Positions 22,484-35,335 of a stretch of DNA of 64,000 bases are shown piece by piece (position 1 is the first letter of the stretch; each line of letters begins with the position of its first letter). The DNA comes from Armatimonadota bacterium. GTDB taxonomy: Bacteria; Armatimonadota; SYMT01. Location of the stretch: assembly GCA_041690135.1 (NCBI GenBank), contig JAWLHY010000015.1, positions 96,001 to 160,000 of the forward strand. The letters run 5' to 3'. A program made the translations under genes and the position numbers. The notes under the pieces are model-generated. The model worked only from the letters and a program-made list of their open reading frames with translations, was not told where the DNA came from and did not search any database.

Positions 22484-22497
22484 TCGGGCCTCATCTC

Positions 22498-22729
22498 TCG
22501 ACACAGAGGGACACAGAAGAGACAGACGAACACAGAAAAGACGGAATTGGATTTGCGGCGCCTGCTGCGGGCACGGCTAGTATCGAGCGAATTGCATCCC
22601 CGCGAAGTCGGGCCGCCACCCAAGAGCCAATGGTTGATTTCTCCTGGCCAGGCATCCAATGGACCCTCCCGAGTTCCACTTGTCTTCTGTGTTTTCCCTT
22701 CTGTTCCCTTCTGTGTCCCTCTGTGTCGA
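22498..22729. repeat. REPIN/MITE-like element, GACACAGAG family, copy 1
   Basis: Perfect 22-bp terminal inverted repeats tcgacacagagggacacagaag / cttctgtgtccctctgtgtcga. Confidence 0.85.
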
Positions 22730-22751
22730 AAGCTCCCCGCGCGCACCGTGT

Positions 22752-24128
22752 CTAAACCGAAACGCCTTCGAGGACTTCCACCGCCAGGGCGAGTTGCTTG
22801 CGAACCTCGTCGGGAGCGGTGCCGCCCGGGGAGCGGCGGGCGCGGACGCTGGCGTCCACGGAGGTGATGTCCTGCGGGGCATGCGCGAACTCCGCGTGGA
22901 ACGGCTCCAACTCGGCGGCGGAGAGGGACTCCAGCACCCGGTCGTGCATCTCGCACCAGCGGACCACCTGTCCCACCACTTCGTGTGCTTCCCGGAAGGG
23001 AACGCCGCGCTGCGCCAGGAAATCGGCCAGGTCAGTCGCCGTGGAGAAGTCTCCCTGCGTGTCGCCGCGCATGCGGTCGGTGCGGAACCGGCAGTTCCGG
23101 AAGAGCAGGGTCATGGCCCCGAGGCAGCCGCCCACGGTGTCGATGCTGTCGAAGATCCGCTCCTTGTCTTCCTGCATGTCGCTGTTGTAGGCGAGCGGCA
23201 GACCCTTCATCGTCACGAGGAGGCTCTGCAGGTTTCCCAGCACCCGGCCGCTCTTCCCACGGACCAGCTCGGCCACGTCCGGGTTCTTCTTCTGCGGCAT
23301 GATCGAACTGCCCGTGGCGATGCTGTCATCCAGCTCGATGAAGCCGAACTCGCGCGTGTTCCAGAGGACAACCTCCTCGGCCAGCCGGGAGAGATGGACA
23401 GCCACCAGCGCCAGCGCGGCGTTCAGCTCCACCACGAAGTCGCGGTCGGAGACGTTGTCCAGGCTGTTCTGCCCCACGCCGTCGAAGCCCAGCTCGTTGG
23501 CCACAAAAGCCCGGTCGAGCGGGTAGGGGGATCCCGCCAGCGCTCCGGCGCCCAGCGGCAGGATGTTAGCGCGCTTTCGCCAGTCCGCCAGCCGGCCCCG
23601 GTCCCGCTGGAACATCCAGAAGTACGCCAGCAGATGGTGCGCCAGCACGACCGGCTGCGCGTGCTGCATGTGGGTGTAGCCGGGCAGCACCGTCTCCGCG
23701 TGCTGGGAGGCGTGCTCCACCAGCACCCGCTGGAGGTCGGCCAGTTGTTGGTCCAGGGAGTCTGCCGCTTCCCGCAGGTAAAGGCGGGTGTCGGTGGCCA
23801 CCTGATCGTTGCGGCTCCGGGCGGTGTGTAGCTTGCCGGCCACGGGGCCGATCTTCTCGCGGAGGTGTCCCTCCACCCAGCCGTGGATATCCTCGGCGCC
23901 TTCCAGGCGACCGGCGGTTTGGATCTCCGCCAGCACCTGCCGGAGGCCCGCCTCGATCTGCGCGCCCTCCTCCGGGGAAATGATTCCGGTGTGCGCCAGC
24001 ATGCGGCAGTGCGCGATGCTGCCGCGGATATCCTGTTCCGCCATCCGCTGATCGAACGGCAGCGAGTGCGTAAAGGCGGCGATGGCCGCGTTCGGCTCCT
24101 TCTCGAACCGTCCGCCCCAGAGCTTCAT
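22752..24128 (-). CDS. argH: Argininosuccinate lyase
   Basis: LWGGRF, HTARSRNDQ, GYTHMQHAQP, GSSIMPQKKNPD. Confidence 0.97.
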   Translation of the reverse strand: MKLWGGRFEKEPNAAIAAFTHSLPFDQRMAEQDIRGSIAHCRMLAHTGIISPEEGAQIEAGLRQVLAEIQTAGRLEGAEDIHGWVEGHLREKIGPVAGKLHTARSRNDQVATDTRLYLREAADSLDQQLADLQRVLVEHASQHAETVLPGYTHMQHAQPVVLAHHLLAYFWMFQRDRGRLADWRKRANILPLGAGALAGSPYPLDRAFVANELGFDGVGQNSLDNVSDRDFVVELNAALALVAVHLSRLAEEVVLWNTREFGFIELDDSIATGSSIMPQKKNPDVAELVRGKSGRVLGNLQSLLVTMKGLPLAYNSDMQEDKERIFDSIDTVGGCLGAMTLLFRNCRFRTDRMRGDTQGDFSTATDLADFLAQRGVPFREAHEVVGQVVRWCEMHDRVLESLSAAELEPFHAEFAHAPQDITSVDASVRARRSPGGTAPDEVRKQLALAVEVLEGVSV

Positions 24129-24748
24129 TCGAGTCCCTCTCCCATCAAATGCGCGACGGCCCGAGCGAGCGGGTCGTCCTCTGCTTCGAGCGCCTTCACC
24201 ACCCCCGTGCGGTCCTCCGCGGAGCGGTTCTGGCCCAGTTTGAACTTGCCCTCGAGCCGCGTGATCTCGATCTCGAAGGCGACGATTCCGTTCAACAAAC
24301 GGCGCACGAAGTCGGCCGGCAGGCGCCCCGTAAACCAGGGCCGTTGGAAGCCGCCTTCATACGTTGCCGTCAAGCGCTCCAAAACCTGCAGCGCCCGCTC
24401 GGGCTCCGTCAGCACCTTCGGCTGGCCGTAAGCGTGCACCGCCACGTAGTTCCAGGTCGGCACGCTCAGCTCCGTCCGGTACCACGTCGGCGAGATGTAC
24501 GCGTGCGGCCCCTGAAACACGACCAGCGCCTCCCCTTCGTCGCCGAATGCCCGCCACTGCGGGTTTGCCCGCGCCATGTGGCACAGCAACGTTCCATACG
24601 GGCCTCGCTCCGGGTCCAGCAGGAAGGGGAGGTGGCTCGCCTGCAGTCCCTCGCTACCCTGGGTCACCAGGGTAGCGAAGCTGTACTGCCGCATCACCGT
24701 GTGCAGGCGGTGCAAGTCGTCTTCCGCGAAGGCCGGCGGAATGTACAT
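24125..24748 (-). CDS. PaiB family (FMN-binding negative transcriptional regulator / heme-binding split barrel)
   Basis: MYIPPAF, HMARANPQW, GPHAYISPTWY, VPTWNY, KFKLGQN. Confidence 0.9.
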   Translation of the reverse strand: MYIPPAFAEDDLHRLHTVMRQYSFATLVTQGSEGLQASHLPFLLDPERGPYGTLLCHMARANPQWRAFGDEGEALVVFQGPHAYISPTWYRTELSVPTWNYVAVHAYGQPKVLTEPERALQVLERLTATYEGGFQRPWFTGRLPADFVRRLLNGIVAFEIEITRLEGKFKLGQNRSAEDRTGVVKALEAEDDPLARAVAHLMGEGLE

Positions 24749-25954
24749 CTACTCGGTCTTCTGGCCCCGGAGCCGGTTAACTTTCATCGGCAGGCCGAAC
24801 AGGTCGATGAAGCCGCGAGCGGCCGTCACGTCGTAATCGCCCATCGCAAAGCTGGCAAGTTCCGGATCGTACAGGCTCGTGTCGCTGGTCACGCCCGCGG
24901 TGGCGGCGCGCCCCTTGAACAGCTTCACCTTCACCGTTCCGCTCACCACGCGCTGCGTCTGGTCGACGAATGCCTGCAGCGCTTCCCGCAGCGGGTGGAA
25001 CCACTGCCCGTAATAGGTGAGGTCCGCATACTTCAGCGCCACCTGCTGCTTGAAGTGGTAGGTGTCCCGCTCCAGGCAGAGCTGCTCCAGCGCCTTGTGA
25101 GCTTCATACAGGATCGTTCCACCCGGCGTCTCGTAGGCGCCGCGGGATTTCATCCCCACCAGCCGGTTCTCGACCAACTGCGTCTGCCCGACCGCGTGGC
25201 GGCCGCCCAGCTCGTTCAGTAGCGCGATCAGCTCGTGGCCCGCCAGCGCCTGGCCGTTCACCGCCACGGGGTTGCCCTGCTCGAAGCGGATTTCCACATA
25301 TTCCGGTTCGTCCGGCGCCTGGGAAACCGGCACGCTCATCACCCACAGCGGGTCTTGCGGCTCGTTGGCGGGGTCTTCCAGGTCCGCGCCCTCATGGCTG
25401 ATGTGCCACAGGTTGCGGTCACGGCTATAGATCTTTGCCTTGGTCTGGTCGATCGGCACGCCCTTTTCGATGGCGTAGTCGATCGCCGACTCGCGGTCGG
25501 TGAGCTCGAAGGTGGGGTCCTTCCAGGGCGCCACGATCTTCAGCGACGGGTCGAGCGCCATGTAGGTCAGCTCGAACCGCACCTGGTCGTTGCCCTTGCC
25601 CGTCGCGCCGTGCCCCACGGCATCCGCGCCCGTCGCATGGGCCACTTCCACCTGATGCTTCGCGATGATCGGCCGGGCGATACTGGTGCCGAGCAGGTAG
25701 TCCTCTTCATAAATCGCGTGCGCGCGGAGCATCGGGAAGCAGTACTCCTCCGCGAACTCCTGGCGCAGGTCCCGAACCACCACCTCATCCGCGCCGCTCT
25801 TGTACGCCTTCTCCTCGATGTTCTTGAGCTCGTCGCCCTGCCCGAGCTCCGCCGCAAACGCCACCAACTTCACGCCCGGGTAGCGATCCTTCAACCAGGG
25901 GAGGATCACGCTCGTATCCAACCCCCCGCTATATGCCAGTACGATCTTTTTCAT
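24749..25954 (-). CDS. argG: Argininosuccinate synthase
   Basis: LAYSGGLDTS, HGATGKGNDQVRF, ENRLVGMKSRG; start at MKKIV. Confidence 0.97.
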   Translation of the reverse strand: MKKIVLAYSGGLDTSVILPWLKDRYPGVKLVAFAAELGQGDELKNIEEKAYKSGADEVVVRDLRQEFAEEYCFPMLRAHAIYEEDYLLGTSIARPIIAKHQVEVAHATGADAVGHGATGKGNDQVRFELTYMALDPSLKIVAPWKDPTFELTDRESAIDYAIEKGVPIDQTKAKIYSRDRNLWHISHEGADLEDPANEPQDPLWVMSVPVSQAPDEPEYVEIRFEQGNPVAVNGQALAGHELIALLNELGGRHAVGQTQLVENRLVGMKSRGAYETPGGTILYEAHKALEQLCLERDTYHFKQQVALKYADLTYYGQWFHPLREALQAFVDQTQRVVSGTVKVKLFKGRAATAGVTSDTSLYDPELASFAMGDYDVTAARGFIDLFGLPMKVNRLRGQKTE

Positions 25955-25970
25955 TGCTTTGCCTTTCCTT

Positions 25971-26048
25971 TCGACACAGAGGGACACAGAGAAGACAAGA
26001 AGGAACACAGAATGAATTGTTCTGTCTGTCCCAGGTGGCTCTGTGTCA
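25971..26048. repeat. GACACAGAG-family inverted-repeat element, copy 2
   Basis: tcgacacagagggacacaga ... ctctgtgtca; right arm contains the GxxExxY stop codon. Confidence 0.8.
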
Positions 26049-26447
26049 AAAACCCTTACCCTTGCGGTCATTCGTGAAGATGCGCCGCCGGATCTGTAGC
26101 TCCGGACCGAAGTTGAACAGGAGCCCGACTTCTATGCGTGTCGCTCGCAGGTAGTTCACCAATTGCACTTCGTGGATGATGGCCAGCGCCTCGATGGCCT
26201 TCAACTCGACAATCACCGCAGCTTCCACCAGCACATCTGCCTCATAGACCCCTACCAACTCGCCCAGATAGTAGACTTCGATCGGCACACTCGTTTCCGC
26301 CGAAAGCCCCATCCTTCGCAGTTCCACCACCAGCGCGTTCTGGTACACCTTTTCGAGGAAGCCCTGCCCCAGCACCCGGTAGACCCGCTTCGCTGCCCCA
26401 ATGATCTTGTGAGTCAGGTCAGCGTGTAGCCCCTCCCGTTCCAACAT
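26046..26447 (-). CDS. GxxExxY protein (PD-(D/E)XK nuclease-like)
   Basis: LGQGFLEKVYQNAL, ADVLVE, IVELKA, QLVNYL, GLLFNFG; GGAGG SD before MLERE. Confidence 0.93.
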   Translation of the reverse strand: MLEREGLHADLTHKIIGAAKRVYRVLGQGFLEKVYQNALVVELRRMGLSAETSVPIEVYYLGELVGVYEADVLVEAAVIVELKAIEALAIIHEVQLVNYLRATRIEVGLLFNFGPELQIRRRIFTNDRKGKGF

Positions 26448-26500
26448 AGGCACCTCCTCCCACTGCGCCACTCTGCATTGAACTCATGCGAGGTGATTCC

Positions 26501-26643
26501 TGACACAGCGGGACACAAAGTTCACGAGAAAGGCCGCGATGACATCTTGTCGAATTGCCCTGCACTCCTGACACGATACCAATGGAATCAGCCCTTCCAT
26601 TCTTCCGTGTCCCTTCTTGTCCCTTCTGTGTCCCTCTGTGTCA
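26501..26643. repeat. GACACAGAG-family inverted-repeat element, copy 3
   Basis: tgacacagcgggacaca ... tctgtgtccctctgtgtca. Confidence 0.8.
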
Positions 26644-26657
26644 AAAGTCGAACGCCG

Positions 26658-27710
26658 TCAGGACAAGAGGACCGCAAGCACAGCTTTTTGCGCGTGGAGG
26701 CGGTTCTCGGCCTGGTCGAAGACGCGGCTGTGGGGGCTGTCGATGACCTCGCCGGAGACCTCCTCTCCACGGTGGGCGGGGAGGCAATGGAGGAACAGGT
26801 AGTCCGGCTTTGCCGCCGCGACAAGCGCCTCATTCACCTGGTAGGGAGCGAAGATCTTCGCGCGCTCAGCGGCCTCGGCTTCCTGGCCCATGCTCGCCCA
26901 CACATCGGTATAGATCACGTCGGCGTCCCGGCAAGCCGCGCGCGGGTCGTGCGTCACCGTGGCGGAGCCGCCGGTCGCCTCCGCATCCTGGCGGGCCATC
27001 GCCACGATCTCCGGCTTCGGCTCGTAACCCGGCGGGCAGGCCACCACCACGTGCGCGCCCAGCTTGGCGCCCAACAGCATCAAGGAGTGGGCTACGTTGT
27101 TCCCATCGCCCACGTACACCACCTTCTGCCCCGCAATTCCGCCGCGGACCTCCCAGATCGTCTGGAAGTCCGACAGTGCCTGGCAGGGGTGTTCCAGGTC
27201 GCACAGCCCGTTGATCACCGGGATCGAAGCGTGCCGGGCGAGTTCCTGGATGGTGGCGTGGGCAAAGACCCGCGCCATGATCCCGTCCGTCATCCGGGAG
27301 AGGTTGCACGCCACGTCGCCGACGGATTCCCGCTTGCCGAGGGAGATATCGGAGGGATTGAGGTAGATCGCATGGCCGCCGAAGTCCACCATCCCCGCCT
27401 CGAAGCTGACGCGCGTCCGCAGGGACGGCTTCTCGAAGATCATTGCCAGCTTCCGCTGGGGCAGGAAACGCGCGTGCGCCGTCTTGTCGGCTTTGATCGT
27501 CGCCTTCAACACCCGCGCCAGGCTCACCAGCGCCCAGGCCTGCTCCACCCCCAGGTCGGGAATACAGCGCAAATGCTTCAGATCCCCACAAATCTCCCGA
27601 GCCGCCTCCAGCGCCTTCCGCGCCGCCGCCTCCGGAGACCCGTCCGCCCCGGCCTCAAACCCCGCCGCGGCCGTCTCCCGCAGACCATTCAGCACACTAC
27701 TATCTCCCAT
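26658..27710 (-). CDS. argF: Ornithine carbamoyltransferase
   Basis: FEKPSLRTRVSFE, HPCQ, GDGNNV, YTDVWASMG, HCLP, QAENR; start at MGDSS. Confidence 0.95.
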   Translation of the reverse strand: MGDSSVLNGLRETAAAGFEAGADGSPEAAARKALEAAREICGDLKHLRCIPDLGVEQAWALVSLARVLKATIKADKTAHARFLPQRKLAMIFEKPSLRTRVSFEAGMVDFGGHAIYLNPSDISLGKRESVGDVACNLSRMTDGIMARVFAHATIQELARHASIPVINGLCDLEHPCQALSDFQTIWEVRGGIAGQKVVYVGDGNNVAHSLMLLGAKLGAHVVVACPPGYEPKPEIVAMARQDAEATGGSATVTHDPRAACRDADVIYTDVWASMGQEAEAAERAKIFAPYQVNEALVAAAKPDYLFLHCLPAHRGEEVSGEVIDSPHSRVFDQAENRLHAQKAVLAVLLS

Positions 27711-27749
27711 CGCTTCACTCCCTACACTTACACATCCACTTCGAAGCTT

Positions 27750-27844
27750 TCGACACAGAGGGACACAGAAAAGACGAGAGGGAACACAGAAGAGAACAAA
27801 CAGATTTCTGTGTTTCTCTGTTCCTTCTGTGTCCCTCTGTGTCA
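27750..27844. repeat. GACACAGAG-family inverted-repeat element, copy 4
   Basis: tcgacacagagggacacagaa ... ttctgtgtccctctgtgtca. Confidence 0.85.
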
Positions 27845-27860
27845 AGAAATCAGTCCGCGC

Positions 27861-29444
27861 TCAGGACAACAGCACCGCCAGGACGGCCTTTTGCGCGTGG
27901 AGGCGGTTTTCCGCCTGGTGGAAGATGACGCTGTTCGGACCGTCGATCACCTCGGGCGTCACCTCTACTCCGCGGCGAGCGGGGAGACAGTGCATGAAAA
28001 GAAAGTCCGGCTTGGCCAGCGCAATCAGCTCTTCGTTGACCTGCAGCCCGCCCAACCGCTTCTGTACCTGTACGGGGTCCTCTTCCGCGGAGACGTCCGC
28101 CCAGGCATCCGTATAGATCACGTCCGCCCCTCCGCAGGCCGAACGCGCGTCGTGCGAGTGGGTAACCGATCCGCCCACCGCCTCTGCGTCCGCGCGCGCC
28201 GCCCGCAGCAACTCCGGTTCCGGCACCCAGTTCTCCGGCGTCACCAGCACCATGTGCGCGCCCAGCTTGGCGCCGAGGAGCATCAGCGACTGCGCCACAT
28301 GCCGCTTGTTGCCCACGAATACGACCTTCTGCCCTTCGACCGAACCCCGCCGCTCCCACAGGGTGAGGAACGCGGCCAGTGCCTCGCAGGGGTGTTCGCG
28401 GCTGGAGAGACCGTTGATCACGGGAACCCGGGAGAACTGCGCCAGTTCCGCGATACTCTGGTGGGAAAAGGCGCGTGCGAGCAGCCCATCCACCCAGAGC
28501 TCCAGGCTCCGCGCCAGGTCCGCCGTCAGTTCCGGACGTCCCGCCACGCTATCGAGCTGGTGCATCGAGATGGCATGCCCGCCAAGCTGGAACATACCGG
28601 TCTCGAACGTCACCCGGGTGCGCAGCGCAGGACGCTCGAACACCATCGCCAGCGTCTTGCCATCCAGCAATCCCCGGTGAGCCGTCTTGCTGATGTTCAA
28701 TGTTTCTTTCAACACCCGGGCCGCGGCCAGGAACGCCCAGGCTTGCTCCCGGGTCAGGTCTTCGATCCCCCGCAGGTCTGTCAGCCCGCGGCAGGCCGCG
28801 CGGGCCAGGTCTACGCCCAACACCGCATTCGCCTCCGCACTGCGAGCGGACCGTTCCTCGGGCGCACGTCGGGATAGGGCAAGCAGCGCTTTGACGTACG
28901 ACCACACGTCCTCGCCGGTCTCCGCTGCCTGGCGCTCCTCTTCCTGCCGGAAGGCGACCAGCTTCTGCATCTGCTCGCGGAGGGTCTCGTTGAGGACCTG
29001 AGTCTCCTCATCGCGGTTGTGTGTCGCCTGAACCTCGTTGCGGGTTCGCTCCAGGTCCGCGCCCTGGGCCGAGAGGCCCCGCGCCGCGAGGCTATCGTGC
29101 TGGCGGATCAATCCCAGCAGCAGGTGCTCGGTGCCGATGTAGTTGTCGCGGAGCCGCCGGGCCTCCTCGTAGGCGGAGTTGAGCACGGCCTTGGTCGCGG
29201 GTGTGACCACCATCGCTTCACCGGTTCCGGCATGCCCGTGCGGGAGGCGGACCTCCACCTCCCGCGCGATGCTCTCCAGATGCAGCCCCAGCCGCTCCAG
29301 GACCCGGGTCGCCGTCGCATCCGACTCCCGCGCCAGGGCCAGGAGCACGTGCTCCGGCTCCACGCGCGTTCCGCCCAGGCGCGCCGCTTCCTGCTCGGCA
29401 AACGCCAGGACCTGGTTCGCTCGCTCCGTCATCCGCTGCCACAT
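27861..29444 (-). CDS. Fusion of a Clp N-terminal (ClpC-type double repeat) domain and a degenerate ornithine carbamoyltransferase domain
   Basis: MTERANQVL..AEQEA.RLG...EPEHVLL and YEEARRL..NYIGTEHLLLGL, then OTC-like PALRTR, HPCE, HCLP, QAENRLHAQKA. Confidence 0.9.
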   Translation of the reverse strand: MWQRMTERANQVLAFAEQEAARLGGTRVEPEHVLLALARESDATATRVLERLGLHLESIAREVEVRLPHGHAGTGEAMVVTPATKAVLNSAYEEARRLRDNYIGTEHLLLGLIRQHDSLAARGLSAQGADLERTRNEVQATHNRDEETQVLNETLREQMQKLVAFRQEEERQAAETGEDVWSYVKALLALSRRAPEERSARSAEANAVLGVDLARAACRGLTDLRGIEDLTREQAWAFLAAARVLKETLNISKTAHRGLLDGKTLAMVFERPALRTRVTFETGMFQLGGHAISMHQLDSVAGRPELTADLARSLELWVDGLLARAFSHQSIAELAQFSRVPVINGLSSREHPCEALAAFLTLWERRGSVEGQKVVFVGNKRHVAQSLMLLGAKLGAHMVLVTPENWVPEPELLRAARADAEAVGGSVTHSHDARSACGGADVIYTDAWADVSAEEDPVQVQKRLGGLQVNEELIALAKPDFLFMHCLPARRGVEVTPEVIDGPNSVIFHQAENRLHAQKAVLAVLLS

Positions 29445-29467: not shown

Positions 29468-29582
29468 GGTGTTCGGGCATTCAGGTGTTCAGGCCACCCC
29501 TCGGGTGGTAAACATTCAGGCAGACTGCCAACTGCCTTCCGCCTTCTGCCTTCCGCCTTCTGCCTTCTGCCTTCTGCCTTCT
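29468..29582. repeat. Short tandem repeats (octamer cattcagg/tgttcagg; heptamer gccttct)
   Basis: gccttccgccttctgccttccgccttctgccttctgccttctgccttct seen directly. Confidence 0.85.
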
Positions 29583-29586
29583 GGCC

Positions 29587-30801
29587 TCAGAGGGCTGCCT
29601 CGATGGCCCTTTCGAGGATTGCCAGACCTTCGTCCGCCTGCTCTCGCGTGAGGATGACGGGCGGCAGGATCCGCAGGGTGGTGTCGCCCACGCCGTGGAT
29701 CACCAGACCTGCTTCCAGCGCGTTCTCCAGGGCGGCTTTGCCCTGCGCGCCTTCGAACTCTATCGCGAGCATGAGCCCCAAGCCACGCACGTCCTGGATG
29801 ACCGGCCACCGGCTCTTCCATTCCCGGAACCGCCCGAGAAGATACTCTCCTTGTTCCGCGGCGTTCCGGACACAGTCACCCGCTTCCAGGGCCTCGATGC
29901 CCGCCGCGGCGGCTGCCGTGGCGAGAGGATTACCGCCGAACGTGGAGCCGTGGTCTCCGGGCACCAGCGCGCAGCGCTCCGGCTTCGCCAGGCACGCCCC
30001 GATTGCCAGGCCCGCCCCCAACGCCTTCGCCAGGGTCACCACATCAGGATCGACCCCATAGTGCTCGTAACACCAGAACCGCCCCGTCCGCCCGAAGCCG
30101 GTCTGCACCTCGTCGATCATGAAGAGCACGTCTCGCTCCCGGCAAATCCGCTCCAGGCCCTGCATGAACTCCGCCCCGGCGGGATAGGTCCCGCTCTCAC
30201 CCTGCACCGGCTCGACAAAGACGGCGCAGGTCTGCGGACCCACGGCCGCCGAGACCGCGTCCAGGTCCTGCCACGGCACATGCCGGAAGCCCGGCACGAT
30301 CGGCTCGAAGCCCCGGTGGAACTTCGTCTGCCCCGTGGCGGAAAGCGCGCCATAGGTACGACCGTGGAACGAGCCCTGGAACGTCACCACCTCGTAGCAG
30401 TCGTCGCCCCGCCGCTGGTGGCCCCATTTCCGCGCCAGCTTGATCGCCGTCTCACTCGTTTCAGCGCCGGAGTTGCAGAAGAATGCTTTCCGGCCGCCGG
30501 TCCGCTCGCATAGCAACTTGCCCAGCCCTGCCGCCCAGGGATGGTGGAAGTCGTTCGAGACGTATGTAAGGGTCTCCAACTGCTGCTTCAGCGCCGCCGT
30601 CACGTGCGGGTGGCAGTGACCCAGCGCATTCCCCGCGCGACCGCCGGAAACCCAGTCGAGGTAGCGCTTTCCGGCGCTGTCCCACATGTAAGCGCCTTCG
30701 CCGCGCACGAACACGATGGGGATGCGACCGTACGTGGTCTGGACGTACTGCTGGTACTCCTGCAAGACCTGGTCTTTCGACCACTCGGCTGGGTTGCTCA
30801 T
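29587..30801 (-). CDS. argD: Acetylornithine aminotransferase
   Basis: FCNSGAE, SFHGRT, EPVQGE, DEVQTGFGRTG, TLAKALG, HGSTFGGNP; first gene of arg operon. Confidence 0.93.
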   Translation of the reverse strand: MSNPAEWSKDQVLQEYQQYVQTTYGRIPIVFVRGEGAYMWDSAGKRYLDWVSGGRAGNALGHCHPHVTAALKQQLETLTYVSNDFHHPWAAGLGKLLCERTGGRKAFFCNSGAETSETAIKLARKWGHQRRGDDCYEVVTFQGSFHGRTYGALSATGQTKFHRGFEPIVPGFRHVPWQDLDAVSAAVGPQTCAVFVEPVQGESGTYPAGAEFMQGLERICRERDVLFMIDEVQTGFGRTGRFWCYEHYGVDPDVVTLAKALGAGLAIGACLAKPERCALVPGDHGSTFGGNPLATAAAAAGIEALEAGDCVRNAAEQGEYLLGRFREWKSRWPVIQDVRGLGLMLAIEFEGAQGKAALENALEAGLVIHGVGDTTLRILPPVILTREQADEGLAILERAIEAAL

Positions 30802-31068
30802 TGGGCCCTCCTCCTCGAGAAAGACAAACAAAAAGAGACGGAGCGAATGCCCCGTCTCTCTTGGAAAACAGTGAACCTGAAGTCAAGCGTCAGGATCGTT
30901 GCCGTGGGACAGGCGCGCCAATAGGATTCCGCCCACGACGGCGACGTTCCTTGTGCCCGCTCTCGATCTGTCCGAAACTGGTATTCACGGCAGGGAAAGT
31001 GTAGCCCGCCCAGGAGGCGTTCGTCAACTTCCCCGACATAGTGCGTGTTGCGAATTGCGTAAGGGCCC

Positions 31069-32460: not shown

Positions 32461-33630
32461 ATGCAACCCATTGGCCAACTGGCCGTTCGCGTTAAGGTCG
32501 TCGAACCGGAAGACCGCATCGCCAAAGCCGCGGAGGCGGTCCGAGCCTCGCAAGTCGGAGCGGTGCCCGTCATCGAGGACGGCCGTCTCATTGGCCAGGT
32601 AACCGCGGACCTCCTGGCGGATTTCCTGACAGAGTTGGGGCCCGCCGGGGTGAAGGAACTCCGGATCGCCGATCTGCCGCTGGTCCCCTTGATCGCCCTG
32701 CCCGAGAGCCTGGCTCCCTCGGAAGCGCTCCTGTTCTTTCAGACAAATGACCTGGAGAGCGCGGCGGTGGTGGACAACTCCGCGGGGTTCCTGGGATTGG
32801 TCACCCGCGCGGAACTGGTAAGCGCCGTGTGCGGGGCCGTCCGTCCCCCGGTAATTGGGGGCATGGCCACCCCGTTCGGCGTTTATCTCACGGGCGGGGG
32901 AGTGCGGGGCGGCGTGGGCGACTTCGCCCTGGTGACCACCGGCGTGTACCTCGCCTCTCTGCAGGCGGTGGCGCTGCTGGTGTCGGAGTACCTCTTTGCC
33001 TCGCCCTCCGGCCTGGTCTACCAGATTCCGGCCCTGGCCGAACGGTTGCCGGCAGTCCGCCTGCCGGTCGTCGATCTCTCCCTGATCGTTTTCGCCATCC
33101 TCTTCCGCCTTTCGTGGATCACGGGATACCATGCGGCGGAGCACCAGGTAGTGCATACGATCGAGGCGGGCGACGAGCTTTTGCCGGAGGTGGTACGCCG
33201 CAAGCCGCGCGAACATCCCCGGTGCGGCACGAACCTCGTCGCGGCCGTAATGATCATGACGTTCTTTTGGACCGCGAGCCGCGAGATGCTGTTCTATCCA
33301 TGGCTCGCAACGCCGTTGAGTTGGATCGACGCCCTGAACCCGGTACTGGCAATGTTCGTCACCTTCTTCTACTGGCGACGGTTCGGAGGTTGGATTCAGC
33401 GGAACATCACCACGCGTCCGGCCTCGCCCCGTCAACTCGACAGCGGCATTGCCGCCGGGCGTCAGTTGATGGAGCGGTACCAACTCCGTGCTATCGGGAG
33501 GCGACGCCGGTTCGATCGGATCTGGAATATGGGCCTGCTGCAGGTCCTCGCAGGGTGGTTTCTCGTACTCGGCTTGATCTCGCTGCTCGGGATGGTGCTA
33601 CCGATTCCCGAGAGCTTGAAGCTTCTGTAA
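32461..33630 (+). CDS. CBS-pair plus DUF1385 membrane protein
   Basis: N-terminal CBS pair; IGGMATPFGV, YHAAEHQVVH, HPRCGTN, Q...TTRP. Confidence 0.85.
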   Translation: MQPIGQLAVRVKVVEPEDRIAKAAEAVRASQVGAVPVIEDGRLIGQVTADLLADFLTELGPAGVKELRIADLPLVPLIALPESLAPSEALLFFQTNDLESAAVVDNSAGFLGLVTRAELVSAVCGAVRPPVIGGMATPFGVYLTGGGVRGGVGDFALVTTGVYLASLQAVALLVSEYLFASPSGLVYQIPALAERLPAVRLPVVDLSLIVFAILFRLSWITGYHAAEHQVVHTIEAGDELLPEVVRRKPREHPRCGTNLVAAVMIMTFFWTASREMLFYPWLATPLSWIDALNPVLAMFVTFFYWRRFGGWIQRNITTRPASPRQLDSGIAAGRQLMERYQLRAIGRRRRFDRIWNMGLLQVLAGWFLVLGLISLLGMVLPIPESLKLL

Positions 33631-33652: not shown

Positions 33653-35335
33653 ATGGTGGTAAGAGAGCAACTGATGGCGGCCCTGGCGGGCGCGCGGGAT
33701 CGGGTAAGTGCGGACTTGAGACTGGCGCCGGAAGCGCCGGTCGAGGTCCGCTTGAGCGTTCCGCCCGGCGCGGATGCCGCGGACTTCTCCTCCGATCTGG
33801 CCCTGGACCTGGCCCGGATGGCGCGCCAACCCGCCGCGGAAGTGGCGCGCGCCCTGGTGGAGCATCTCGAACCGGTAGCGGAAGGGTTGGAGTGGGTGGA
33901 GCGGCTGGAGATCACTCCCAGTGGGCTGGTCAACTTCCACCTGCGATCGGACTGGGTTCGCGAGGCTATCCGGGAAGCCTGCCGGCAGGGGGTGCGGTAC
34001 GGTCGTTCGGAAGTAGCGCCGGAAGCCCAGGAGGAGCGTATCCAGGTAGAGTTCGTCAGTGCGAATCCCACCGGCCCGCTCACCATCGGCCACGGACGCG
34101 GCGCGGCCCTGGGAGACGCGATCGCCAATCTCCTGGAGTGGACCGGCCGCGGGGTGACTCGCGAGTCGTATGTCAACGATACCGGCAAGCAGATCGAGCG
34201 TTTCGGTCAGGCTCTCGAAGCCGCCTACCGGCGGCGCCTGGGTGGGTCGGCGGCCACCAGTAACGCTGCGGACGATCCGGCCGCGGAATACGCCGCCGAA
34301 ATTGCCGCCCGGATTCAGCCGAAGGCCGAGTCCCGCTGCGCCGGTCTTCCCGCCGAAGAGTGGCCTCGGGTTCTGGCGGAGTTGGGCGCCGAACAAGTGC
34401 TGACCGACCACCGCGCCGTGCTGGAGCGGTTCGGCGTCCGTATAGACGAGTGGCGCTCGGAGGCCGACCTCCTGGCCTCGGGCCGGTTGGAAGAGGCGAT
34501 CCAGACGCTTCGCACCAACGACTGCGTTTACGAAGCCGAAGGTGCGCTGTGGCTACGCGCCACCGCGAAGGGAGATTCGGAAGACCGCCCGCTGATCCGC
34601 AGCAACGGTCAACCGGCCTACCTGGCGGGGGACCTGGCCTACCACCTGGATAAATTCAGCCGGGGCTTCGACCGGGTCATCGATATCTGGGGACCGCATC
34701 ACGCGGAGTATGTCCGGCGTACCCTCGCGGGAGTCCGGGCCTTGGGTTGCAACGCGGACGCGCTGGAGATCGTCGTTTTTCAGCCCGTCTCCGTGAAGAT
34801 CGAAGGGGTAGTGGTCCATTCCGGCGAGGGTGGCGCCCGCGCGGGGAACAACTTACTCCTGGATCAGGTCATAGAGAAGGCAGGCAGGGGCACTCTTCGT
34901 TTCCTCTACCTTTCTCGCCCGGCAAACCAGCCGCTGGAGCTCGACCTGGATGCCCTGGCGGGTACGTCGAACCCGGCTTACCCCGTGCTCTGGGCTTACG
35001 AGGAAGCGGCTGTGTGTGCCGGTTCGGATTCCGTCTCAAGCGCCCAAACGGCCGAAGTGGAACTTGGAGAGTTGTCCGATCCGCGTGAAGAAACCCTGAT
35101 GCGCCGGTTGGCCGATTTTCCCGATCAGGTAGTGTTGGCGGCCCGAGAGCGGGATCCTTCGCGCCTCACCCGTTACGCACTGGAGACCGCGAGAGAGTTT
35201 GAAGCGTTCCGAGCCCTTCTGGCGTCCGGGCCGGAAGCTGGAAGTATCAAACCGGCCCACGCGGCGGTGGCACGCGCCACCCGCGTGGTGCTGGGCAACG
35301 CACTGGCAATCCTGGGCATCGTCGAACAGGAGTAA
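33653..35335 (+). CDS. argS: Arginine--tRNA ligase, divergent
   Basis: VEFVSANPTGPLTIGHGRGAALGD, YVNDTGKQI, DLAYH, DALR-like C-terminal domain; several motifs degenerate. Confidence 0.8.
   Translation: MVVREQLMAALAGARDRVSADLRLAPEAPVEVRLSVPPGADAADFSSDLALDLARMARQPAAEVARALVEHLEPVAEGLEWVERLEITPSGLVNFHLRSDWVREAIREACRQGVRYGRSEVAPEAQEERIQVEFVSANPTGPLTIGHGRGAALGDAIANLLEWTGRGVTRESYVNDTGKQIERFGQALEAAYRRRLGGSAATSNAADDPAAEYAAEIAARIQPKAESRCAGLPAEEWPRVLAELGAEQVLTDHRAVLERFGVRIDEWRSEADLLASGRLEEAIQTLRTNDCVYEAEGALWLRATAKGDSEDRPLIRSNGQPAYLAGDLAYHLDKFSRGFDRVIDIWGPHHAEYVRRTLAGVRALGCNADALEIVVFQPVSVKIEGVVVHSGEGGARAGNNLLLDQVIEKAGRGTLRFLYLSRPANQPLELDLDALAGTSNPAYPVLWAYEEAAVCAGSDSVSSAQTAEVELGELSDPREETLMRRLADFPDQVVLAARERDPSRLTRYALETAREFEAFRALLASGPEAGSIKPAHAAVARATRVVLGNALAILGIVEQE

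Follow-up and report, generated by a model that had tools for sequence, protein, structure and literature searches.

Why should a bacterium keep, directly upstream of an intact gene for ornithine carbamoyltransferase (OTC), a second copy whose active site is altered and whose N-terminus carries a domain of the Clp protease system? The question is raised by a 64,000-nucleotide stretch of DNA (the window; positions 96,001 to 160,000 of contig JAWLHY010000015.1, assembly GCA_041690135.1) from a soil-type Armatimonadota genome (9.1 Mb, 25 contigs, 97% complete), in which an open reading frame (ORF) at 27861–29444 on the minus strand encodes a Clp_N-OTC fusion beside argF. An earlier note on this DNA had read the fusion as a likely pseudo-enzyme that co-assembles with ArgF and couples arginine synthesis to Clp proteolysis or to the sensing of phospho-arginine (pArg), or else as a transcarbamylase of new specificity. 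Its observation was confirmed and its interpretation was borne out in part: catalysis does appear to be lost, whereas neither the uniqueness of the architecture nor the link to McsB and pArg found support. We conclude that the fusion is very probably a non-catalytic paralogue kept under selection, and we tentatively favour the view that it joins ArgF in an assembly as the subunit that bears Clp_N, after subfunctionalisation at the level of domains.

The ORF is intact and encodes 527 residues that run from a two-repeat Clp_N domain through a helical linker to the two halves of an OTC (Pfam: Clp_N in two stretches, E 8e-27; OTCace_N, E 3.8e-34, residues 224–364; OTCace, E 4.7e-47, residues 370–524). 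Behind Clp_N, Pfam finds only the OTC domains and no AAA+ module, i.e. the protein does not have the make-up of a Clp/Hsp100 unfoldase. BLASTP aligns residues 218–527 with ArgF at 175/310 identical positions (56%), the last 18 residues being the same in both proteins, and the fusion scores 303.8 bits against the NCBIfam model TIGR00658, above its curated cut-off of 280.85, so that annotation pipelines will name it an OTC. The AlphaFold2 model of the fusion has a mean predicted local distance difference test (pLDDT) of 89.8 and a predicted template modelling score of 0.70, places the linker helices at 131–176, 183–196 and 200–217, and loses confidence at two loops, the 80s and the SMG; a look-up in the ESM Atlas gave no usable match. 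All the features that had been read from the letters were recovered: the intact ORF joining Clp N-domain, helical linker and OTC beside an intact argF (ORF, Pfam and AlphaFold2), the altered catalytic motifs, the retained HCLP and the identical C-terminus (BLASTP alignment), and, within the N-domain, PEH and TEH with TPA in place of TPR (sequence alignments). An assembly artefact, which the earlier note had named as a possible undoing, is not the explanation, since more than 100 independent contigs show this architecture and the base composition is smooth across the gene.

The OTC body has lost most of what defines the enzyme. As described in PMC4581275, SxRT, HPxQ and HxLP are the motifs of all transcarbamylases, the serine of SxRT contacting the phosphate of carbamoyl phosphate and HPxQ its carbamoyl moiety, and DxxxSMG, N167 and K53 bind ornithine in OTC. 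In the window protein SLRTR has become ALRTR (FERPALRT), HPCQ reads HPCE, GDGNNV reads GNKRHV and DVWASMG reads DAWADVS; the full set of changes is K271R, S273A, R304P, Q354E, D358A, D379N, G380K, N381R, N382H, S450D, M451V and G452S, against R275, T276, R277, R324, H351, D446, C486, L487, P488 and R514 kept. The protein therefore lacks the SxRT-type, HPxQ and DxxxSMG/Asn167 signatures of an active OTC and has HxLP. The best solved relative, Pyrococcus furiosus OTC (PDB 1a1s / 1pvv; E 1.2e-92, residues 223–526), has the same two-domain fold and the RTR, HxLP and ENR elements in common with the fusion; unlike it, the fusion has the SxRT Ser, HPxQ Gln, DxxxSMG, N167/N168 and K53 equivalents changed and bears a 222-residue N-terminal extension. 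Judged from the alignments, the ornithine signature is broken throughout, as are two of the three family motifs, and the protein is almost certainly no longer an ornithine carbamoyltransferase.

The altered motifs are common to just three protein clusters among the database relatives listed, namely the window protein, P0002 (80% identical to it) and P0004 (60%), hereafter the degenerate trio; in a library clustered at 50% identity the window protein is the sole representative of this form. HCLP is retained in all three. We compared the trio with 393 other OTC domains, taken from 188 ORFs (loci of at least 18 phylum labels) and 205 database proteins: S273, Q354, D358, D379, N382 and M451 are invariant (393/393) and K271 and S450 nearly so (392/393 each), and the trio differs at all eight positions. 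Of the 94 columns that 118 canonical domains conserve at 95% or more, 36 carry a change in one or more members of the trio and 19 in all three, 13 of the 94 to the same residue in each; argF is canonical at all 36. A further 93 carbamoyltransferase representatives include 15 that deviate at two or more of 12 key sites, with altered second-substrate residues, which are probably enzymes of other specificity, yet none of the 93 departs from S273, Q354 or D358 where the column is covered (two truncated entries are without the K271 and S273 columns). Since these three residues never deviate there, the changes in the window protein point to a loss of catalysis rather than to an exchange of substrate.

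The architecture itself is widespread. Clp_N and both OTC domains are present in all 120 of the best database relatives listed, of which 117 have the canonical SxRTR and keep both S273 and Q354, and the named ones are all Armatimonadota or Armatimonadetes. We inspected the OTC locus in 30 of 40 related genomes of the same phylum and found Clp_N and OTC fused in one frame in 13, a separate adjacent Clp_N gene in 4 and no Clp_N in 13; the separate-gene form keeps the linkage of Clp_N to OTC. In G001 the fusion gene is divided between two contigs and changes frame within its linker. In a scan of JGI metagenomes with P0008 as query (best match at 58% identity among the matches listed, P0008's own contig not being one of them), 38 of the 80 best loci listed were fused, all of them canonical, and the fetched flanks of these 38 held no second OTC. 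No Clp_N was seen on an OTC from another phylum among the 80 OTC loci listed. Clp_N-linker-OTC is thus a common form of argF in Armatimonadota, with its catalytic residues intact, and not a singularity of this gene; the earlier note's statement that it knew of no description of such a fusion agrees with our full-text literature searches, which found no paper on it. The canonical fusions (e.g. P0069 = MBV9850377.1), annotated simply as 'ornithine carbamoyltransferase' in databases, have the same domain order with one to three Clp_N modules and are likewise placed in the arg cluster (argD-fusion-argG-argH in G001). No catalytic residue is missing from them, and each is the sole OTC found in its genome or locus (the only match in G004, G006 and G007, of the same family or order), whereas the window fusion, whose nearest canonical relative is P0008, has lost its catalytic residues and lies next to a second, catalytic gene.

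Several variants of this arrangement were also seen. Two or three Clp_N modules occur in 19 of 121 proteins scanned (the 120 fusions and the genome's own ClpC), e.g. in tandem before the OTC in P0003, P0006, P0009 and L007 (G007); likeness to ClpC is usually greatest in the module adjoining the OTC, those farther away being very divergent. A representative library holds 53 proteins made of Clp_N repeats only, with up to 11 matched stretches in 1762 residues. The separate Clp_N gene, with one or more modules, lies directly upstream of an unfused OTC at L009 (G008), L011 (G023), L012 (G036) and L025 (G016). Two fused OTCs, L032 (G013) and L035 (G028), have HCQP instead of HCLP and are otherwise canonical, and that of G031 reads SLRTK. 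The unfused OTC-like proteins P0348, P0298, P0256, P0342, P0315 and P0284 combine canonical carbamoyl-phosphate motifs with altered ornithine-site residues, which makes them candidate carbamoyltransferases of other specificity.

The degenerate OTC body does not decay freely. All three trio members are intact, full-length ORFs of 527–535 residues at 60–80% identity. The differences between the window protein and P0002 fall on 7/96 top-conserved columns versus 7/21 variable ones (p 0.0035), those between the window protein and P0004 on 22/96 versus 15/21 (p 4e-5), and the linker, 61–70% identical within the trio and 50% identical to that of P0008, is as conserved as the domains. Since substitutions within the trio avoid the columns conserved in OTCs, the fold is under selection, which speaks against the neutral evolution that the earlier note had named as a refutation; its stem branch, at 0.31–0.38, shows faster evolution than in canonical copies. 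The public sequencing runs found (six, with 5–7% of the sampled words each) include none of RNA.

How did a dead and a live copy become neighbours? argF is most closely related to the fused P0040 and P0029 (79–80% identical, SH-aLRT 99), and it keeps the last helix of the linker and no more of it; from these two facts it follows that argF has lost its Clp_N. A stand-alone Clp_N frame of 226 residues, stop-to-stop, at G000:C1:539085-539762 (-) was considered as the lost N-domain and rejected, being divergent and in an unrelated context. The Clp_N of the trio groups with that of the canonical P0008 (SH-aLRT 98), which shares the trio's linker type, T31P and the loss of R83 and has intact catalytic motifs, and a grouping of the trio with P0008 is compatible with the OTC data (p-AU 0.54); at family level the OTC-domain tree, a quick tree, is a polytomy. 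In the same-family genome G005 the order is argD-argF-PDDEXK-argG, and its argF bears the trio's linker type; P0122 (Armatimonadota) has the same N-terminus as this argF. The contigs of the degenerate P0004 and of the unfused canonical OTC P0129 are both 36,496 bp long, which suggests that the same pair exists in a second lineage. The window fusion and argF have undergone complementary losses. The degenerate gene would be the resident copy, and a second gene, of the P0029 type and now bounded by 47-nt inverted repeats, would have come to lie downstream of it.

The module that the fusion retains is of the ClpC type. Among solved structures it matches the B. subtilis ClpC N-domain best (E 8e-28, residues 1–139), and it is 54–57% identical to the N-domain of the genome's own ClpC, which is encoded elsewhere. 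Residues T7, R9, E32, K85, E106 and R122 have roles in the ClpC N-domain according to PMC12583610. The pArg-pocket equivalents T7, E32 and E106 are kept in all three trio sequences, as are those of R9, K85 and R122, with K85 replaced by R in one. The fusion therefore has the two-repeat fold and these six residues in common with the ClpC N-domain (B. subtilis 5hbn / 2y1r; S. aureus ClpC), from which it differs in having no AAA+ modules, T31 replaced by Pro and R83 by Ala. The canonical OTC-proximal modules stand closer to the N-domain of the window genome's ClpC (median identity 78%, maximum 92%), and the OTC-linked module of G007 is 86% identical to that of G007's own ClpC. Recent gene conversion between clpC and the OTC-linked module was considered and rejected: among identical residues, identical codons amount to 38–68% within genomes versus 45–62% for clpC between genomes, i.e. 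the background level, so that it is selection that maintains the likeness. In five other genomes of the family or order (L045-L049) the ClpC N-domain protein is 97–100% identical, and that at G000:C6:415673-416116 is 99% identical to that of G004, while identical residues have the same codon in only 45–62% of cases among the five; such invariance despite codon divergence implies unusually strong purifying selection on every surface of the domain. PF00217, the family of the known arginine kinase McsB, is present in 17/41 genomes of the phylum. A link between McsB and the fusion was tried and dropped, as the family occurs in 8/17 relatives with a fused or adjacent Clp_N versus 7/13 without, i.e. 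with no association.

A precedent for such a domain outside the protease is mycobacterial ClpC2, described in PMC13345244 as a Clp_N-like domain on a DNA-binding domain that acts as a pArg-sensitive repressor and antibiotic sponge, whose oligomer state and activity change on ligand binding and whose hosts are without a known arginine kinase. In both cases a homologue of the ClpC N-domain sits on a protein that is not a protease; the partner domain is a repressor in ClpC2 and a dead metabolic enzyme in the fusion, and the likeness is an analogy of mechanism, not of membership.

These data can be accommodated by the following scheme. Two diverged Clp_N-OTC fusion genes would have come side by side in this lineage and degenerated complementarily: the copy next to argD would have kept Clp_N and the lineage-specific linker and lost the residues binding carbamoyl phosphate and ornithine, and the downstream copy, argF, would have kept all catalytic residues and lost Clp_N. 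As its fold is still under selection, the dead OTC body may serve as an oligomerisation scaffold, in mixed trimers with ArgF or in a trimer of its own, presenting in trans the Clp_N module missing from the catalytic subunit. In a mixed trimer the altered 80s loop of the pseudo-subunit would also cripple the ArgF site next to it. To judge from analogy with ClpC2 and the ClpC N-domain, the Clp_N module might bind pArg, an adaptor or ClpC, and would thereby tie OTC to proteostasis signals. A comparable case is Pseudomonas aspartate carbamoyltransferase (ATCase), in which an inactive dihydroorotase-like protein, PyrC', is kept as a structural or regulatory subunit of a transcarbamylase. Note that PyrC' is a dihydroorotase homologue and not a transcarbamylase paralogue, and has no Clp_N.

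Co-assembly with ArgF was addressed by structure prediction. The model of a heterotrimer of two ArgF bodies and one pseudo-OTC body scored 0.87, versus 0.00 for the best of three controls; for scale, the same mark was reached by 58/80 solved complexes and by 2/110 mismatched pairs. Contacts agree between runs to at least 84%, and the partner has a pLDDT of 87 or more. On the strength of this model, co-assembly of the fusion with ArgF, as the earlier note had proposed, is plausible; conservation of the interface, given below, does not add to it.

A number of observations weigh against the scheme and are gathered here. Hetero- and homotrimers are not distinguished by the heterotrimer model, and as OTC homotrimers have been solved its pass may come from likeness to them and does not show binding. 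Identity between pseudo-subunit and ArgF is no higher at the predicted interface (24/45) than in the rest of the domain (150/262; p 0.63). The carbamoyl-phosphate contacts RTR, R324, H351, HCLP and R514 are retained, so that an anion or carbamoyl-phosphate pocket may persist. The equally diverged canonical pair argF/P0029 differs at only 1/96 top-conserved columns, where the window protein and P0002 differ at 7/96, and with only three degenerate sequences the statistics on conserved derived residues are thin. As to origin, the OTC data are also compatible with a clade in which the trio joins argF, P0029 and P0040 (p-AU 0.42), and the placing of P0004 and P0129 on one contig is inferred only from the equal length of 36,496 bp. 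In G005 argF is unfused and no degenerate copy is found, which, together with the 13/30 relatives that have no Clp_N at the OTC locus, indicates that the function of Clp_N is dispensable in some lineages. Within the N-domain, the R83 that has become Ala is invariant in 21/21 ClpC N-domains and present in 27/28 canonical OTC-proximal modules. Finally, McsB (PF00217) was not found in the window genome, at its 97% completeness, nor in any of seven genomes of the same family or order, which leaves the proposed McsB/pArg link without direct support.

An alternative is a pseudoenzyme that makes no contact with ArgF, forming instead a homotrimer that displays three Clp_N modules as a decoy or sponge for ligands of the ClpC N-domain, such as adaptors and pArg proteins, or as a modulator of ClpC in the manner of ClpC2. 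Catalytic loss and selection are accounted for just as well, the predicted interface is indeed not specially conserved towards ArgF, stand-alone Clp_N genes adjoin OTC in 4/30 relatives, and for ClpC2, as PMC13345244 describes it, a Clp_N-like domain outside an AAA+ protein binds pArg and changes its oligomer state. Such a protein would, however, have little reason to retain an OTC body of 305 residues that could have been shed, yet has been kept in three lineages; the degenerate copy always lies, where seen, beside a catalytic argF in an arg cluster; and the heterotrimer model passes. Co-transcribed paralogues of a homotrimer, moreover, usually still mix. We regard this alternative as unlikely.

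The fusion could also be a transcarbamylase that still binds carbamoyl phosphate but takes a new second substrate, in a new and more basic pocket shaped by N-K-R-H and the altered 240s loop. Most of the phosphate and carbamoyl contacts are retained (RTR, R324, H351, HCLP, R514), GNKRH is identical in all three degenerate sequences, and the NCBIfam score of 303.8 exceeds the OTC cut-off of 280.85; according to PMC4581275, OTC-like proteins with odd ornithine motifs have proved to be AOTCase, SOTCase or PTCase. The same source, however, has SxRT and HPxQ kept by every known member of the family, and both are broken here, together with D358. Of the 15/93 representatives with altered second-substrate residues, none deviates at S273, Q354 or D358 where these are covered, i.e. 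they still keep the Ser and Gln lost in the window protein. The mobile closing loops (80s and 240s/SMG) are not conserved among the three degenerate sequences, and no gene for an unusual-substrate pathway was found among the neighbouring genes. This second proposal of the earlier note is thereby weakened and now seems very unlikely to us, and its first, that of a pseudo-enzyme, is strengthened: two of three family motifs and DxxxSMG are lost, and the gene is kept under selection beside an intact argF. That the fusion is a superfluous copy decaying towards a pseudogene and without any function of its own is most improbable, its faster evolution (stem 0.31–0.38; 7/96 versus 1/96 top-conserved columns for argF/P0029) and its rarity (three clusters, and a close relative, G005, without it) being outweighed by three intact ORFs of 527–535 residues at 60–80% identity, substitutions that avoid conserved columns, 13 derived residues identical in all three, a linker as conserved as the domains and plausible ribosome-binding sites before both genes.

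The fusion stands second in an arg cluster whose genes all lie on the minus strand, in the order argD, Clp_N-OTC fusion, argF, PD-(D/E)XK gene, argG, FMN_bind_2 gene and argH (Table 1). The most likely start of argF is the ATG at 27710, with AGGGAG 7 nt upstream, giving a product of 350 residues that matches database record P0121 of the same contig and scores 409.5 bits against TIGR00658 (cut-off 280.85); a plausible ribosome-binding site precedes the fusion as well. The start of argG was placed at MKKIVLAYSGG from the G001 orthologue; the names argG and argH are our assignments from sequence and recall. The genome holds three OTCace-family genes, i.e. the fusion, argF and one on contig C6 that we take to be pyrB, and its ClpC and ClpB, the former as the earlier note had suggested checking, are encoded away from the fusion locus. 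The PDDEXK_3 gene has a 69% identical orthologue at the same place in G005 (L008:2581-3012). Outside the cluster, argS (arginyl-tRNA synthetase; 33653–35335, plus strand) lies about 3 kb away on the opposite strand, adjoined by a gene for a CBS/DUF1385 membrane-type protein (32461–33630).

Table 1. Features of the arg cluster and its repeats, in window coordinates.
Feature	Position	Strand	Basis
argD, of the acetylornithine aminotransferase type; heads the cluster	29587..30831	-	Pfam Aminotran_3, E 2.5e-114
7-nt tandem repeat (GGCAGAA-like, ~8 units) in the argD/fusion spacer	29527..29582		Repeat search and sequence
Clp_N module of the fusion (residues 1-145), ClpC type, two repeats	29010..29444	-	Pfam Clp_N; solved-structure match
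Helical linker of the fusion (residues 146-222)	28779..29009	-	Alignment, AlphaFold2 model
Degenerate OTC domain (residues 223-527 and stop)	27861..28778	-	BLASTP versus argF, column comparison
Inverted-repeat element in the 150-nt fusion/argF spacer; 19-nt perfect arms 27752-27770 and 27825-27843	27745..27856		Repeat search
argF, canonical catalytic residues, without Clp_N, last linker helix kept	26658..27710	-	Pfam, NCBIfam TIGR00658
PD-(D/E)XK family gene between argF and argG, inverted repeat copies on either side	26046..26471	-	Pfam PDDEXK_3, E 5.3e-38
argG (argininosuccinate synthase)	24749..25954	-	ORF; name by sequence likeness and recall
FMN_bind_2 (PaiB-like) gene between argG and argH	24125..24748	-	Pfam, E 2.3e-62
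argH (argininosuccinate lyase)	22752..24128	-	ORF; name by sequence and recall
GACACAGAGGGACACAGAA repeat element sites	22487-22538, 22680-22734, 25968-26012, 26601-26647, 27745-27856		

The intergenic spacers of the cluster contain inverted pairs of a repeat element whose core is GACACAGAGGGACACAGAA. Its pairs flank argF with 47-nt arms (85% complementary) and the PD-(D/E)XK gene with 45-nt arms, and in the fusion/argF spacer one pair makes a perfectly matched hairpin of 19 nt. Allowing up to two mismatches, there are 37 copies in the 9.1-Mb genome, 7 of them in the window and 6 in the 6-kb arg cluster. The element could be of the miniature inverted-repeat transposable element or repetitive extragenic palindrome kind, or a shared regulatory site.

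Taken further, Clp_N on OTC might be a post-translational sensor that sets arginine synthesis by the state of proteostasis, split in this genome into a regulatory chain (dead OTC and Clp_N) and a catalytic chain (ArgF) that form an ATCase-like heteromer, a notion that we consider distinctly unlikely as it stands. Were it true, it would provide a sensor for pArg proteins, for a ClpC adaptor or for ClpC itself in a phylum where the C-terminal domain of ArgR (PF02863) was detected in 0/41 genomes (8/14 control genomes have it). The pair is in any case a natural dissection of the fusion, with N-domain function and catalysis on separate adjacent paralogues, so that the role of Clp_N can be tested without touching catalysis. 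It also carries a warning for annotation, as a dead copy scores above the curated OTC cut-off. The wider and apparently undescribed fact is the Clp_N-OTC fusion found across the phylum, which hints at a connection, so far unstudied, of arginine synthesis to the Clp system.

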